Assembly (NCBI GenBank): GCA_902612325.1
Contig: CACMDB010000002.1
Location: 154,893 to 218,892 of the forward strand
From: an uncultured Pelagibacteraceae bacterium
Lineage (GTDB): Bacteria > Pseudomonadota > Alphaproteobacteria > Pelagibacterales > Pelagibacteraceae
Direction of reading: 5' to 3'
Length of the DNA stretch: 64,000 nt
Notes under the pieces: model-generated
What the model was told of the DNA's origin: nothing
Database searches by the model: none
Seen by the model: the letters and a program-made list of their open reading frames with translations, nothing else
Translations under genes and position numbers: made by a program
Shown here: positions 56,389 to 64,000 of the stretch, piece after piece
Position numbering within the stretch: position 1 is the first letter of the stretch
How the letters are laid out: each line of letters begins with the position of its first letter

Positions 56389-57597
56389 ATGCGAATATTC
56401 ATTACTGGAATGGTCCCAACTAATACAAATAATCGAGGTGATGATGCTGTGTTTATGTATTTAATAAATCAACTAAGAAAAAAATATAAAAATTGTAAAA
56501 TTATTGCAGCGCTAAGACATCCAGATGATGATTACGATAAATTTTTCAAAATTAAGTCGATTTCAAATTTAGAGTATAAAGATAAAAAAAATAGTATTGG
56601 TAAATTTTTTTATGGATTTAATTTTAAAGATAAAAGAGACAGATTATATAGAATTGTAGATAAAATTAAAAAAGCTAATCTTGTAATTATTGGTGGTAGC
56701 CCGTTTGAGGGAATTTCAGAAGAAAATATTTTTTTTGGCCAAGGTACTTATGCAAAACTTATTGCGACTATTTGTATTATTCTTAAAAAAAAATATATCA
56801 TTTACGCAATAAAACAATATGAGTTTTCTAATCTAAAATTAAAAAAAATAGCAAAATTTGTAATAGAAAATGCAGATAAAGTTTTAGTAAGAGAACGTTA
56901 TTCACTTAATATATTTAAAAAAAATAATATAAGAACAGATCATTGTAAAATTATTGGTGATCCGGTCCTTAATTTGAATTATTCAGAAAAATTTCTTAAG
57001 AACAAAAGTACAAAGATCACTAAAAAATTTCAGATAAATAAATTTCAAAAAAATGATAATTTAGTAATTGTTTGTTACAGAAATATTTATTGGGATAAAA
57101 AAAATTTAGAAAAAAAAATAAATAAAATTACCAAAATACTCGATTACCTCGTAAAAAAACACAATTTAAAAATTTTGTTTGTTCCGCTACAAAATTATAA
57201 AATATCCAAAAATGATTATAGCATGGATGACTCATTCATAATGAACAAAATTAGAAAAAAAATGATTTTTAAAAAATCTACAATTGTATTTGATCACGCT
57301 ATAAATTTGTATGAAACATTATATTTATGTTCTATTTCTAAAGTTATAATTTCAAACAGAAGACATATGCCAGCATTTGGGTCTCTTTTTAAAAAAAAAT
57401 TGATTGGTCTTATAGAAAAGGGTAATGAAGAAAATATAATTCCATTTTTTAAATTTTTAAAACAAGAAAAAAACCTAATCTATTTTGAAAAAATTAATTA
57501 TGATAGATTAATTCATATTTTCTCAAAGTTTTTTGATAATAAACAAAATTATAAATCAAAAAAAATTATCACTAAGAATATTTTAAATTATATTTAA
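56389..57597 (+). CDS. Polysaccharide pyruvyl transferase family protein (paralog B)
   Basis: NRGDDAV, GGSP, LVRE, DPVL, NRRH; shares RHP...IKS..N.E...KK.SIGKFF.GFN with paralog A. Confidence 0.82.
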   Translation: MRIFITGMVPTNTNNRGDDAVFMYLINQLRKKYKNCKIIAALRHPDDDYDKFFKIKSISNLEYKDKKNSIGKFFYGFNFKDKRDRLYRIVDKIKKANLVIIGGSPFEGISEENIFFGQGTYAKLIATICIILKKKYIIYAIKQYEFSNLKLKKIAKFVIENADKVLVRERYSLNIFKKNNIRTDHCKIIGDPVLNLNYSEKFLKNKSTKITKKFQINKFQKNDNLVIVCYRNIYWDKKNLEKKINKITKILDYLVKKHNLKILFVPLQNYKISKNDYSMDDSFIMNKIRKKMIFKKSTIVFDHAINLYETLYLCSISKVIISNRRHMPAFGSLFKKKLIGLIEKGNEENIIPFFKFLKQEKNLIYFEKINYDRLIHIFSKFFDNKQNYKSKKIITKNILNYI

Positions 57598-58400
57598 TGA
57601 ATAATCCTATTGCCTTGAGTTCTTTCAGAAAGTCTGGAAACTATTTATTTATGAAAACTTTACAAAATATTCTTGAAATAAATAAATCATGGAAAACTTT
57701 TTCAGGATCGAATGATACATGGAAAAAAACTTATTCGAAAAAAGAATTGGCCTATCCAGAAGAATTAGAGATTGACGAATTGGTTTATTTTGAAAAAAAT
57801 AGATGGCAGCTTTATAAGGGTAAGTTTAGAAATGATTTAACCACTAATGATGTAGACAATTTAAGTAAAAAAACTTCCTTCTTATTAACTCACGAAGCTC
57901 CAGATCCAATTTATTTTAATTCAACTGAATTATCAAATTTTAATTGGTGTTATCTTGTTAGAGATATAATGCCAACATTAAATTCTTTAATGCACTTTCT
58001 TACTTCAGAGGTAATTTTAAAAAGGGAACCAACCTATAAAATTACCGATGTAAAAGATTTAATTAGTAATGACGGATTTTTAAACAATCAAATTGAAAGA
58101 TGGATGTATCATACAAAAATGTATATTAAGTACAAAAAATATTATCGATTATTCAGATATGAAGATATCGTTAATGATAAAGAAAAATTTGTTCGAGACT
58201 TAATAAGGTTATCTAAATTAAATATTAATAAATCAAAAGTTGTTTTAGAAAATTTATCCTTTGAAAATATGAAAAAAAATGCCCCTCAACATGTTAGAGT
58301 TGGAAAAAAATATGACTACAAAAAATATTTCTCAGAAGAAAAAGTACTTAAGATAGAGTCAAAATGTAAAAATATTCGACAAGAATTAGGATATAGATAA
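57597..58400 (+). CDS. Sulfotransferase domain protein
   Basis: 5'-PSB-like SFRKSGNYL; 3'-PB R-x7-S (RDIMPTLNS); RYED; SFENMK; RVGK..DYK.YFS. Confidence 0.78.
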   Translation: MNNPIALSSFRKSGNYLFMKTLQNILEINKSWKTFSGSNDTWKKTYSKKELAYPEELEIDELVYFEKNRWQLYKGKFRNDLTTNDVDNLSKKTSFLLTHEAPDPIYFNSTELSNFNWCYLVRDIMPTLNSLMHFLTSEVILKREPTYKITDVKDLISNDGFLNNQIERWMYHTKMYIKYKKYYRLFRYEDIVNDKEKFVRDLIRLSKLNINKSKVVLENLSFENMKKNAPQHVRVGKKYDYKKYFSEEKVLKIESKCKNIRQELGYR

Positions 58401-58403
58401 AAA

Positions 58404-62328: not shown

Positions 62329-63147
62329 ATGATTATGAATAAAAAATTAAATTATTTTAGAGCTCAGATTATTGATAGTGTATTTAAGTCTGGCAATGGT
62401 CATATAGGTGGAGCTTTGTCATGTCTCGAAATTGTTTATAGTATTTATAAATATGGTATGCAAAATCCTTATAAAAATAGAAAAAAAAAGGATAGAGATA
62501 GGTTTATTCTTTCAAAGGGGCATGCTTGTTTGGCACAATACGTTGTGCTCTCTCATTTGGGCTTTTTCAAGAAACAGGAATTAAACTTTTTTAGATCCCA
62601 CAGAGGAATTTTAGAGGGACATCCAGAAGTAAAAATTCCTGGTGTTGAAACAGTAACGGGCTCATTAGGTATTGGTGCCTCTTTTGCAACTGGTGTAGCT
62701 CTAGGCCTGAAAATGCAAAAATATAATTCTAAAGTTTATTGTATAATTAGTGATGGAGAGTGCCAAGAAGGAATAATTTGGGAAACAGCTATGTTTGCTG
62801 GCTTCAAAAAATTAAATAATCTTACTTTTTTTTTGGATTATAATAACTTACAGCAAGATGGAAAAATAACTGATGTAATGAATATTAATCCAATTGTTCA
62901 AAAATGGAAGTCTTTTAATTGGATTGTAAAAACTATAAATGGGCATAACTTAATGGAACTTAAGAAAGTTCTTAAAAATAGAAACAAATATAAAAAACCT
63001 CTTCTTATAGTTGCGAAAACCATTAAAGGAAAAGGCATATCATTTATGGAAAATTCATTAAAATGGCATGGAACAAAAGCACCCACTAAAGAAGAGTACT
63101 TAAAAGCATTGGGTGAATTAGGTTTTAACCGAAAACTAAATTATTAG
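62329..63147 (+). CDS. Split transketolase, N-terminal subunit 2
   Basis: GHIGG, DRFILSKGH, GHP, TGSLG.G, DGECQEG...N, TIKGKG, WHG. Confidence 0.9.
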   Translation: MIMNKKLNYFRAQIIDSVFKSGNGHIGGALSCLEIVYSIYKYGMQNPYKNRKKKDRDRFILSKGHACLAQYVVLSHLGFFKKQELNFFRSHRGILEGHPEVKIPGVETVTGSLGIGASFATGVALGLKMQKYNSKVYCIISDGECQEGIIWETAMFAGFKKLNNLTFFLDYNNLQQDGKITDVMNINPIVQKWKSFNWIVKTINGHNLMELKKVLKNRNKYKKPLLIVAKTIKGKGISFMENSLKWHGTKAPTKEEYLKALGELGFNRKLNY

Positions 63148-63148
63148 T

Positions 63149-64000
63149 ATGAAAGAAAATTTTTCAATGAGAACCCATTACGGTGTTTTAATGAAAAAAT
63201 TTATGGTCAAAAATAAACGTATTGTTATTTTAGGTGCTGATACATTTGGAGGTACACATGTAAAATTTGCATCTGAAGAGTTTCCTCGTAGAAGTATTAA
63301 TTTTGGTATATCAGAGCAAAATATGATGGCTGCTGCAGCTGGCTTAGCAAGTACAAACAAAATACCTATTGTAAATACATACGGAATGTTTGCATCTATG
63401 AGAGCTTTGGAAATGCTACGAACTGCAATTTGTTTGAATAATGCTAACGTTAAAATTGTTTCAAGTCATTGTGGATTAGATGTTGGTCAAGATGGACCAA
63501 CACATCAAATTATTGAAGATATTTCGATATTAAGATCTATACCAAATTTAAAAATTTTAACACCCATGGATAAATATGAGCTTCATTCTCAACTTGACTG
63601 GATGATAAAATATAATGGTCCAGTATACCTTAGAACTATTAGAAGAAAACAAGGAGAGTTTTATAAAAAAAAAACTAACTTTAAAATTGGAGAATGGCCA
63701 ATTATTAAAAAGGGTAAAAATGTTACAATAATTTGTTTACAAGTAACTTATCCTTATGTTGAACGTGCTGCATTTATTCTGAAAAATAAATATAATATTA
63801 GTGCTCAAATTATTCATGCGTCAAGTTTAAAGCCAGTTAATGAAAACTCTTTTTTAAAAAAAATAAGAGACACAAAACTTATAGTAACTGTGGAGGATCA
63901 CAATATTTATGGTGGGTTAGGTTCTATAGTCTCTGAAATATTGAGCACAAAAATGCCTAAAAAATTAGTTAGAATTGGAGTTAAAGATAGATTTGGGAAA
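63149..64000 (+). CDS. Split transketolase, C-terminal subunit 2 (runs off the window; absent from the ORF track)
   Basis: ATG 63149: MKENFSMRTHYG...FGISEQNMM...GQDGPTHQ...PVYLR...EDH..YGGLG...GVKDRFGK, open to the window end. Confidence 0.9.
   Translation, partial: MKENFSMRTHYGVLMKKFMVKNKRIVILGADTFGGTHVKFASEEFPRRSINFGISEQNMMAAAAGLASTNKIPIVNTYGMFASMRALEMLRTAICLNNANVKIVSSHCGLDVGQDGPTHQIIEDISILRSIPNLKILTPMDKYELHSQLDWMIKYNGPVYLRTIRRKQGEFYKKKTNFKIGEWPIIKKGKNVTIICLQVTYPYVERAAFILKNKYNISAQIIHASSLKPVNENSFLKKIRDTKLIVTVEDHNIYGGLGSIVSEILSTKMPKKLVRIGVKDRFGK

Follow-up and report, generated by a model that had tools for sequence, protein, structure and literature searches.

The window analysed here is a 64,000-nucleotide (nt) stretch from the genome (G000) of an uncultured SAR11 bacterium (Pelagibacteraceae), in an assembly that is 95.7% complete with 8 kb masked; near its end lies a compact operon in which an ATP-grasp ligase is coupled to a phosphatase of the ComB fold. 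A preliminary description of this DNA had reported, at 57597-64000 on the + strand, seven genes with overlapping or abutting ends, and the listing of open reading frames bears this out. As an extent, however, 57597-64000 covers only the middle part of a same-strand array of 11 genes, which begins at 56389 and runs past the window end. In order, these encode a polysaccharide pyruvyl transferase, a sulfotransferase, a Zn-dependent dehydrogenase (Zn-DH), an ATP-grasp enzyme, a ComB-family phosphatase, an APH-type kinase, both subunits (N and C) of a split transketolase (TK-N and TK-C), an Fe-dependent alcohol dehydrogenase (Fe-ADH), a PseG-like hydrolase and an LA_1612-family O-antigen protein. 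The pyruvyl transferase gene overlaps that of the sulfotransferase by 1 nt, a gap of 3 nt follows before the Zn-DH gene, and the next three junctions are overlaps of 29 nt (Zn-DH/ATP-grasp), 4 nt (ATP-grasp/ComB) and 14 nt (ComB/kinase); the kinase and TK-N genes abut, and TK-N and TK-C are separated by 1 nt. Beyond the window TK-C continues to 64087, followed by the genes for the Fe-ADH (64084-65196), the PseG-like protein (65193-66149) and the LA_1612-family protein (from 66161), the last of which is truncated where the contig stops. Spacers are generally very short in SAR11 genomes, in which tight gene packing alone is nothing special.

The 16S and 23S rRNA genes lie in the window at 45049-49666, the DNA after them has a GC content of ~25%, and the 5S rRNA gene is found on contig C6 at 48628-48742. 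As a metagenome contig (L003, 97-99% identical) runs from the LA_1612 gene into the 107-aa helix-turn-helix gene ending C6, and so supports a join of contigs C2 and C6, the operon can be placed in an island between 23S and 5S that spans at least 54 kb, the hypervariable region 2 (HVR2) of SAR11. The array is thus part of the SAR11 23S-5S hypervariable glycan island, in keeping with the preliminary view that it serves glycan tailoring in HVR2. A pntA small RNA (RF01810, 78.6 bits; G000:C6:48423-48484, L042:2423-2484, -) immediately adjoins the 5S rRNA gene that closes HVR2.

Family searches directly recovered six of the seven families first assigned to these genes (Zn-DH, ATP-grasp, ComB, kinase, TK-N and TK-C). 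The ATP-grasp protein (59467..60702, +; PF02655, 55 bits) resembles carboxylate-amine ligases of the L-amino-acid-ligase/PurT type: the closest folds to its AlphaFold2 (AF2) model (pLDDT 91) are 4dim and BL00235 (TM 0.79-0.81), RizA and BacD, followed by PurK and PurT, and homologues with 31-39% identity (tblastn) carry the LAL_C2 domain (PF18603). Sequence identity is 12-17% to the named L-amino-acid ligases and PurT, and 20% to the uncharacterised 4dim. L-amino-acid ligases, PurK and PurT join a small acid (bicarbonate for PurK) to an amine via an acyl or carboxy phosphate. On the strength of its modelled fold the window protein is plausibly a carboxylate-amine ligase acting on an amino sugar, and the amide bond to an amino sugar first proposed for it stays plausible. 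Whereas the enzymes that are its best structural matches (BacD/YwfE, RizA, BL00235 and PurT) function in peptide or purine synthesis, the window ATP-grasp is found in a context of glycan synthesis, and this argues for a substrate pair other than two free L-amino acids.

The gene overlapping it encodes a protein with the 2-phosphosulfolactate-phosphatase fold of the ComB family (60699..61388, +; PF04029, 97.7 bits against a cut-off of 26.4), which matches 2yyv in the PDB at E = 2.5e-11 and shows the family stretches IDVF(R/N)xxTT, NSP, N(G/T)xK and E-x3-CA conserved across four lineages. The ComB fold has so far been tied to coenzyme M and sulfolactate. The window protein shares the Pfam family and the motif stretches with the ComB of those pathways, but it lies in a glycan operon beside an ATP-grasp gene and its best NCBIfam equivalog score is 86 bits against a cut-off of 235; furthermore, no match to ComA (PF02679, phosphosulfolactate synthase) was found in the 95.7%-complete genome, which makes sulfolactate chemistry unlikely. 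A word-based homologue search with this protein returned 3 matches only, and an exhaustive search with a hidden Markov model (HMM) 1784 relatives. The nearest of these outside SAR11 have short or unrelated contexts, including lone genes on 2-kb contigs, and among them no second ComB + ATP-grasp context was found outside the SAR11-type lineages. Another context for the ComB fold apart from coenzyme M is seen in P0147 (a Logan SRR18502801 contig), where a 383-aa NUDIX-ComB fusion is encoded beside an adenylate kinase and two radical SAM genes, one of them with a CYTH domain.

The penultimate gene of the array (65193-66149, same strand) encodes a 318-aa protein that falls below the TIGR03590 cut-off (35 and 24.9 bits). 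A profile of its family matches only the PseG of Campylobacter jejuni (3hbm), over its full length and at E = 7e-8, and a G-x-G-H motif is conserved, pointing to a divergent PseG, that is, a UDP-sugar hydrolase. The O-antigen protein gene following it on the same strand (from 66161) was assigned to the LA_1612 family by family search and is incomplete at the contig end.

The remaining array members flank the ATP-grasp-ComB pair. The first gene is that of polysaccharide pyruvyl transferase 2 (PvT2; 56389..57597, +; PF04230, 67.8 bits). The sulfotransferase encoded next (57597..58400, +) has no Pfam or NCBIfam match itself, yet the label given to it at first holds, as homologues match PF00685 and a profile of 4 sequences finds PDB structures of cytosolic sulfotransferases, among them SULT2A1 and SULT1B1, with E about 1e-9. 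Its KSGN, TH and RxGxxxDYKxxF motifs are conserved (K12-S-G-N, T98-H99, R122/S130, R234-x-G236, covering the 5'-PSB, the 3'-PB and the catalytic His), as in sulfotransferases that use 3'-phosphoadenosine 5'-phosphosulfate (PAPS). PAPS could be supplied by the products of sat (ATP sulfurylase) and cysC (adenylylsulfate kinase), which are convergent with overlapping ends at G000:C5:124378-125944, and O-sulfation by the operon is accordingly plausible. Full-length cysC-like genes occur in 6/25 sampled genomes of the genus, and the capacity to make PAPS looks patchy across it. The Zn-DH (58404..59495, +; ADH_N 70.5 bits, Glu_dehyd_C, ADH_zinc_N) is a medium-chain dehydrogenase of polyol/threonine-dehydrogenase type with both Zn sites readable; its top NCBIfam matches, Tdh (L-threonine 3-dehydrogenase, 136 bits) and idonate 5-dehydrogenase (124 bits), are both far under cut-off.

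Downstream of the ComB-family gene, an APH-family small-molecule kinase (61375..62328, +; PF01636, 29.9 bits) retains the catalytic D199-x4-N204 and DFDY motifs, and its protein-atlas neighbours are all APH. Single-sequence and profile searches with it against the PDB gave nothing significant; its AF2 model is poor (pLDDT 69, with the catalytic loop <50), and the nearest folds, namely aminoglycoside, choline and ethanolamine kinases, at most support the APH class and do not indicate a substrate. The kinase gene is followed by those of split transketolase 2 (TK2), with its N subunit at 62329..63147 (+; Transketolase_N, 161.7 bits) and its C subunit at 63149..64087 (+, the window ending at 64000; Transket_pyr + Transketolase_C). 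Alignment indicates that every catalytic and phosphate-binding residue is kept in TK2, the N subunit having the equivalents of His26, His66, His100 and His261 with the thiamine diphosphate (ThDP) motif, and the C subunit those of Arg358, His461, Asp469, His473 and Arg520. The Fe-ADH (64084-65196, same strand; PF00465) matches, among others, choline dehydrogenase GbsB, EutG and YiaY-type threonine dehydrogenase, far under the equivalog cut-offs, and weakly the sulfoacetaldehyde reductase SarD (101.7 bits against a cut-off of 700).

The distribution of these genes helps to separate core from accessory components. No ComB-like gene was found in 60 relatives, and no close ATP-grasp homologue was seen among 300 further representatives of species in the order, 3 of which have only ATP-grasps of 28-32% identity. 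In metagenomes the nine genes from PvT2 to Fe-ADH occur in the same order in contigs L003-L005, a lineage 97-99% identical to the window, and in two divergent low-GC lineages, L006 and L007/L008, at 35-64% protein identity; the neighbourhood search that the preliminary description had called for thus shows that the combination recurs. From PvT2 to Fe-ADH the identities are 51, 44, 49, 46, 40, 38, 64, 60 and 51% for L006, and 44, 40, 37, 46, 38, 36, 60, 60 and 35% for L007/L008. Such conservation of a nine-gene order is more than chance. A fourth lineage (L029, TARA), with an ATP-grasp 67% identical to that of the window, has the same upstream block (PseF, methyltransferase, pyruvyl transferase, reductase, transketolase and NanM genes, described below) and then reads directly ATP-grasp-ComB-PseG-like, seven operon genes being absent within its sequence. 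ATP-grasp-ComB adjacency is hence kept in all four SAR11-type lineages (L003, L006, L007 and L029), whereas PvT2, sulfotransferase and Zn-DH (module A; PvT2 having the same position in L006 and L007) and kinase, TK2 and Fe-ADH (module B) are together present in three lineages and together absent in the fourth. The operon thus consists of a core, ATP-grasp-ComB-PseG-like, plus the two accessory modules A and B; it is rare among genomes and has several divergent versions in metagenomes. The seven genes first described do not form one inseparable set, given that L029 has the core without sulfotransferase, Zn-DH, kinase, TK2 and Fe-ADH.

The rest of the island provides the context in which this core can be understood, namely the biosynthesis of nonulosonic acids (NulOs). 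It encodes PseB (C6:72253-73239, 425.9 bits against a cut-off of 407.75), a PseC-like aminotransferase (297.9 bits against 423.5) that also resembles the LegC and ArnB types, and two NeuB-family synthases scoring under the PseI and NeuB cut-offs, one of them full-length and the other short (286 aa), the latter matching only the first ~275 of the 327-329 positions in the PseI and NeuB models. The first gene after the 23S rRNA encodes a PseF-like CMP-nonulosonate cytidylyltransferase (49768..50460, +; TIGR03584 PseF, 204.2 bits against a cut-off of 205.7), whose counterpart in L003 matches CTP_transf_3. Compared with the canonical PseB-PseC-PseH-PseG-PseI-PseF pathway of C. jejuni and Helicobacter pylori, the island therefore has PseB, a PseC-like enzyme, PseF near its cut-off, NeuB-family synthases and a PseG homologue, with the PseG and the short NeuB divergent; the acetyltransferase PseH is missing, as no TIGR03585 match was found in the genome at E <= 0.01, and no NeuD/PglD-type acetyltransferase was matched inside the island. 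Conversely, the canonical pathway has no counterpart of the ATP-grasp, ComB and transketolase enzymes. These pathway-defining partners (the PseG-type hydrolase at the operon end, PseB, the PseC-like enzyme, PseF, NeuB and the upstream split transketolase with its reductase) had been missed at first.

Between the PseF-like gene and the operon are six further genes. The first two encode a methyltransferase that depends on S-adenosylmethionine, SAM (50463..51494, +; Methyltransf_23/11/31) and polysaccharide pyruvyl transferase 1 (PvT1; 51491..52714, +; PF04230, 73 bits). They are followed on the opposite strand by genes for a FabG-like short-chain dehydrogenase/reductase (SDR; 52717..53442, -; adh_short_C2, 173 bits), the C subunit (53423..54409, -; Transket_pyr + Transketolase_C) and N subunit (54381..55208, -; Transketolase_N, 127 bits) of split transketolase 1 (TK1), and a NanM-type putative sugar O-methyltransferase (55205..56281, -; TIGR04371, 197.9 bits against a cut-off of 44). 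In the TK1 C subunit DGASAQ replaces DGPTHQ, so that the His473 equivalent is lost, all other catalytic residues being kept. As the same variant is found in a metagenomic TK1 copy that is 51-56% identical (L007:5129-6945; C subunit 56%), DGASAQ marks a TK1 subfamily and not a sequencing error.

Elsewhere in the island are encoded an NDP-sugar 6-dehydrogenase resembling UDP-glucose dehydrogenase (UGDH), a TviC-like epimerase, a PglK-like flippase, Gmd, the glycosyltransferases GT2, GT4 and WecG, and a Wzy_C O-antigen-ligase-family protein. A 641-aa protein (G000:C6:80052-81977; L027:14053-15978, -) has only an N-terminal GH57-like domain (PF03065, 46 bits), which could be a deacetylase-like barrel. 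A separate cluster at G000:C6:60910-64850 (L042:14910-18850, -) combines a gene for a 3-dehydroquinate synthase (DHQS)-like enzyme of sugar-phosphate-cyclase type with a second CTP_transf_3, an SDR and a 438-aa protein, and is adjoined by aminotransferase and radical SAM/SPASM genes; it may make a second unusual activated sugar. A mycosporine-type pathway, with a sugar-phosphate cyclase and an ATP-grasp, was considered for the operon and rejected, since the Fe-ADH belongs to PF00465 and is not a DHQ synthase, and the DHQS-like gene is ~23 kb off and unlinked.

Distant relatives of the ATP-grasp (31-39% identity, tblastn) were recovered at 12 loci in at least 8 phylum-level groups, the hosts being Deltaproteobacteria, Campylobacteraceae, Desulfurellales, Nitrospirae, Dehalococcoidia, Lentisphaeria, cyanobacteria, Asgard archaea and Nitrososphaerota. 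A scan of genome contigs with the ATP-grasp alignment returned metagenome-assembled genomes (MAGs) only, and no cultured organism of known glycan structure; a look-up of cluster members likewise yielded no informative names. In the 12 loci the ligase gene is always preceded by an SDR gene, and this in turn by a transaldolase (TAL) gene or, in L022, a transketolase gene. The cassette TALs show the Glu/Lys/Phe pattern of catalytic residues of true transaldolases, on which ground a reading as aldolases of the fructose-6-phosphate aldolase type was rejected. The SDRs of the TAL-type loci are 68-81% identical between bacterial phyla and Asgard archaea, and this suggests a horizontal spread of the cassette. 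The window SDR is 33-47% identical to the SDRs directly before the ATP-grasp in these loci, and the split TK1 and SDR (52717-55208, -) appear to stand in place of the TAL and SDR found elsewhere. The true transaldolases of the cassettes and the phosphate-binding residues of TK2 both point to sugar-phosphate chemistry.

The other genes that recur near these cassettes again include those for NulO synthesis. A PseG-like gene is present in 6/6 distinct TAL-type loci with enough flanking DNA, and a short NeuB with a CTP_transf_3 in several loci; further recurring partners are methyltransferases, PS_pyruv_trans, a sulfotransferase and the GH57-like protein. Homologues of the window's SAM-dependent methyltransferase (32-39% identity) occur in most cassettes with enough flanking DNA, a homologue of the NanM-type methyltransferase in the Campylobacteraceae cassette L017, and PS_pyruv_trans genes beside the cassettes in L026, L030, L057 and L058. 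All these partners are found in the SAR11 island, where the short NeuB shares 46% identity with that of L010, and the GH57-like protein 33% with the protein after the ATP-grasp in other phyla (including L010). The TAL-SDR-ATP-grasp cassette (L009, L010, L015-L026, L030, L057, L058) is indeed often followed by such a GH57-like protein of ~640 aa. Maf, FliD or four flagellin genes mark L017, L057 and L058 as loci of flagellar glycosylation, and the glycan at flagellin-glycosylation loci is normally a NulO. In L017, a Campylobacteraceae MAG, PseC is separated from PseF by an insertion that holds a Uma2-family endonuclease gene together with a nucleotidyltransferase/HepT-like toxin-antitoxin pair (L017:1155-2397).

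Among described systems the nearest to the SAR11 operon is sfmABCDE of Shewanella oneidensis MR-1, which encodes a 290-aa NeuB-domain protein, an IlvB-like ThDP enzyme (581 aa), a FabG-like SDR, a SAM methyltransferase and a 412-aa ATP-grasp, adjoins a Maf gene and is needed to modify flagellin (PMC3765264). The flagellin glycan of this organism combines a 274-Da mono-N-acetyl NulO resembling pseudaminic acid (Pse) with a nitrogen-free, polyhydroxylated C9H16O7 moiety bearing 0-2 O-methyls, and its genome has PseB and PseC with no clear PseH, PseG, PseI or PseF; the evidence for sfm comes from genetics and mass spectrometry, without enzymology (PMC3765264). The parts list of sfmABCDE matches the conserved core of the cassettes, and the SAR11 island has all five kinds of gene, a likeness of composition in which SfmE (SO_3265) is the putative counterpart of the ATP-grasp. 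The two differ in that S. oneidensis has an IlvB-like ThDP enzyme where SAR11 has a split transketolase and other phyla a transaldolase, in that sfmABCDE is without ComB-family phosphatase, kinase, sulfotransferase, Zn-DH, Fe-ADH and pyruvyl transferase, and in the target, which in S. oneidensis is flagellin, a protein that SAR11 lacks. A second point of comparison is the HS:2 capsule of C. jejuni, where Cj1438C, an ATP-dependent amidoligase using serinol phosphate, is followed by the phosphatase Cj1435, the Cj1438 substrates being polymer-bound glucuronic acid (GlcA) and serinol phosphate or ethanolamine phosphate from pyridoxal phosphate (PLP) enzymes (PMC11800397). The ligase-then-phosphatase logic, with a phosphorylated partner, may be the same in SAR11, where ATP-grasp and ComB are translationally coupled, although Cj1435 is a HAD phosphatase and not of the ComB fold, the SAR11 operon is without such PLP enzymes, and its context is that of a NulO and not GlcA. 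The N-glyceroyl pseudaminic acid of Tannerella forsythia (Pse5Am7Gra) was rejected as a direct precedent, since a working PseH is present there and the ligase is not named in the paper.

Taken together, these observations suggest, with about an even chance of being correct, that the operon takes part in making a NulO of pseudaminic-acid type that bears an unusual N-linked side chain in place of the usual acetyl group. PseB and the PseC-like enzyme of the island would make a UDP-4-amino-4,6-dideoxy-hexosamine. The ATP-grasp enzyme would then stand in for the missing PseH, activating a small sugar-derived hydroxy-acid, probably still phosphorylated, as an acyl phosphate and joining it to the amino group. 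The ComB-family enzyme could strip off the phosphate handle, the divergent PseG at the operon end could remove UDP, the short NeuB could condense the sugar with phosphoenolpyruvate, and PseF would yield the CMP-sugar. The acid might be supplied by a C-C transferase and a ketoreductase, namely split TK1 and the SDR here and a transaldolase and SDR in other phyla. Modules A and B would lengthen the side chain, drawing on sugar phosphates, tune its redox state and close it off with sulfate and a pyruvate ketal; O-methyl groups would come from the two methyltransferases. We infer the substrates, the order of the steps and the identity of the acid from observed gene families, synteny, recurrence, NulO context and ligase fold. 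What favors N-acylation by the ATP-grasp is the ATP-grasp-ComB-PseG-like order together with the lack of PseH, the fold of the ligase and the setting among NulO and flagellin genes; the ligase-then-phosphatase step has a biochemical precedent in Cj1438C/Cj1435 (PMC11800397). The products of TAL, TK and ThDP enzymes are all ketols requiring a ketoreductase, which would account for the interchangeability of these enzymes before the same SDR.

Several points weigh against this proposal. No enzyme of the operon obviously makes a carboxylic acid, so that the acid substrate is a guess, and the UGDH-like and TviC-like enzymes of the island make a uronic-acid carboxylate an alternative substrate for the ligase. 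The TK1 and SDR genes of the window are ~4 kb away from the ligase gene, on the opposite strand and not beside it. The PseG-like and short NeuB proteins are under the NCBIfam equivalog cut-offs, and the absence of PseH rests on HMM searches of an assembly that is 95.7% complete and has 8 kb masked. Finally, the TAL-type cassettes are without a ComB-family gene, and the phosphate-handle step is hence not universal; this detail deserves less weight than the model as a whole.

The alternative that survives best, though we judge it unlikely, takes the analogy with Cj1438/Cj1435 literally. Here the ATP-grasp would amidate a carboxylate of the glycan (that of a hexuronic acid made via the UGDH-like and TviC-like enzymes, of a pyruvate ketal or of the NulO itself) with a phosphorylated amino alcohol or amino acid made by Zn-DH, Fe-ADH and the APH kinase, and ComB would then dephosphorylate the product. 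Besides the C. jejuni precedent of an ATP-dependent amidoligase, a phospho-amine and a phosphatase (PMC11800397), this is favored by UGDH-like and TviC-like genes in the SAR11 island and in L017, by L-threonine 3-dehydrogenase as the top NCBIfam match of the Zn-DH, by choline dehydrogenase GbsB, EutG and YiaY-type threonine dehydrogenase among the matches of the Fe-ADH, and by the DFDY motif of the kinase with choline and ethanolamine kinases among its fold neighbors; all these enzyme matches, however, are far under the equivalog cut-offs. Moreover, a UGDH gene lies beside the cassette in 1 non-SAR11 locus only, as opposed to the PseG-like gene in 6/6 of the TAL-type loci with enough flank, and many cassettes belong to loci that glycosylate flagellin, with a NulO and not a uronic-acid polymer as the glycan. 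Amidation of a glycan carboxylate would also leave TK, TAL and SDR, the most conserved partners, without a role, and the minimal variant L029 lacks kinase, Zn-DH and Fe-ADH within its sequence.

Rather less probable still is the absence of any single pathway, in which case the operon would be a mosaic of independent tailoring genes, packed together through the compactness of SAR11 genomes and acting on different sugars of an O-antigen-like polymer. The generally short SAR11 spacers, the modularity of the set (L029 being without seven of the genes) and the many other sugar pathways in the island (Gmd, the DHQS-like enzyme, the second CTP_transf_3 and the radical SAM enzymes) are consistent with such a mosaic, but it sits poorly with an order of nine genes that three lineages share at 35-64% identity, with two accessory modules jointly present in three lineages and jointly absent in a fourth, and with ATP-grasp-ComB adjacency in all four. 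A sulfonated (C-S) unit of sulfolactate or 2,3-dihydroxypropane-1-sulfonate (DHPS) type, or a polyol-phosphate unit, for which transketolase would build the skeleton, ComB dephosphorylate a phosphosulfolactate-like intermediate and the ATP-grasp ligate the product to an amino sugar, is very improbable: the ComB-family fold, the sulfotransferase with its PAPS supply, the two split TK pairs (split TKs also occur in the SqwGH pathway) and the weak SarD match of the Fe-ADH speak for it, but the genome has no ComA, the ComB protein scores 86 bits where the nearest equivalog requires 235, sulfotransferases make O- or N-sulfate esters and not sulfonates, the dehydrogenase is without a TarI-type nucleotidyltransferase, and ATP-grasp-ComB persist in L029 without sulfotransferase, Zn-DH, TK2 and kinase. 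The sulfonate, sulfolactate, DHPS and sulfoglycolysis flavor of the preliminary description, as well as its TarJ-like polyol-phosphate substituent, are therefore not retained; of the sulfur genes it had proposed looking for, comA is not found in the genome, and sat and cysC are, in keeping with O-sulfation.

Returning to N-acylation of a NulO by the ATP-grasp, it is also possible, though we put this forward with some doubt, that a widespread PseH-independent route exists in bacteria and archaea. In this route an ATP-grasp of L-amino-acid-ligase type would attach a polyhydroxy acid, derived from TAL, TK or another ThDP enzyme and an SDR, to the amino group of the sugar, with SAR11 adding a repurposed ComB-fold phosphatase, followed by sulfation and pyruvylation of the side chain. 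Loci for NulO biosynthesis and tailoring are already known as a kind; a route such as that proposed for the SAR11 operon is not known to have been worked out. Literature searches for the gene combination found nothing matching, in agreement with the earlier statement that no pathway with this gene set is described, and those for follow-ups of sfm found nothing beyond PMC3765264; the S. oneidensis glycan has stayed unexplained since 2013.

To our knowledge, the enzymes that give NulOs their many N-acyl decorations are largely unknown. The SAR11 locus and its relatives define a compact gene set for such a decoration, in which a C-C transferase and an SDR feed a ligase, a phosphatase, a PseG-like hydrolase and a short NeuB. 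In SAR11, susceptibility to phages and the charge of the cell surface are believed to depend on HVR2 glycans, a role that would suit an anionic NulO side chain, sulfated and pyruvylated, of rare occurrence among genomes. If the proposal is true, it would extend the ComB fold to glycan tailoring, and the PseH-independent route would give the enzymology behind the Shewanella flagellin glycan along with a new class of NulO N-acyl groups.

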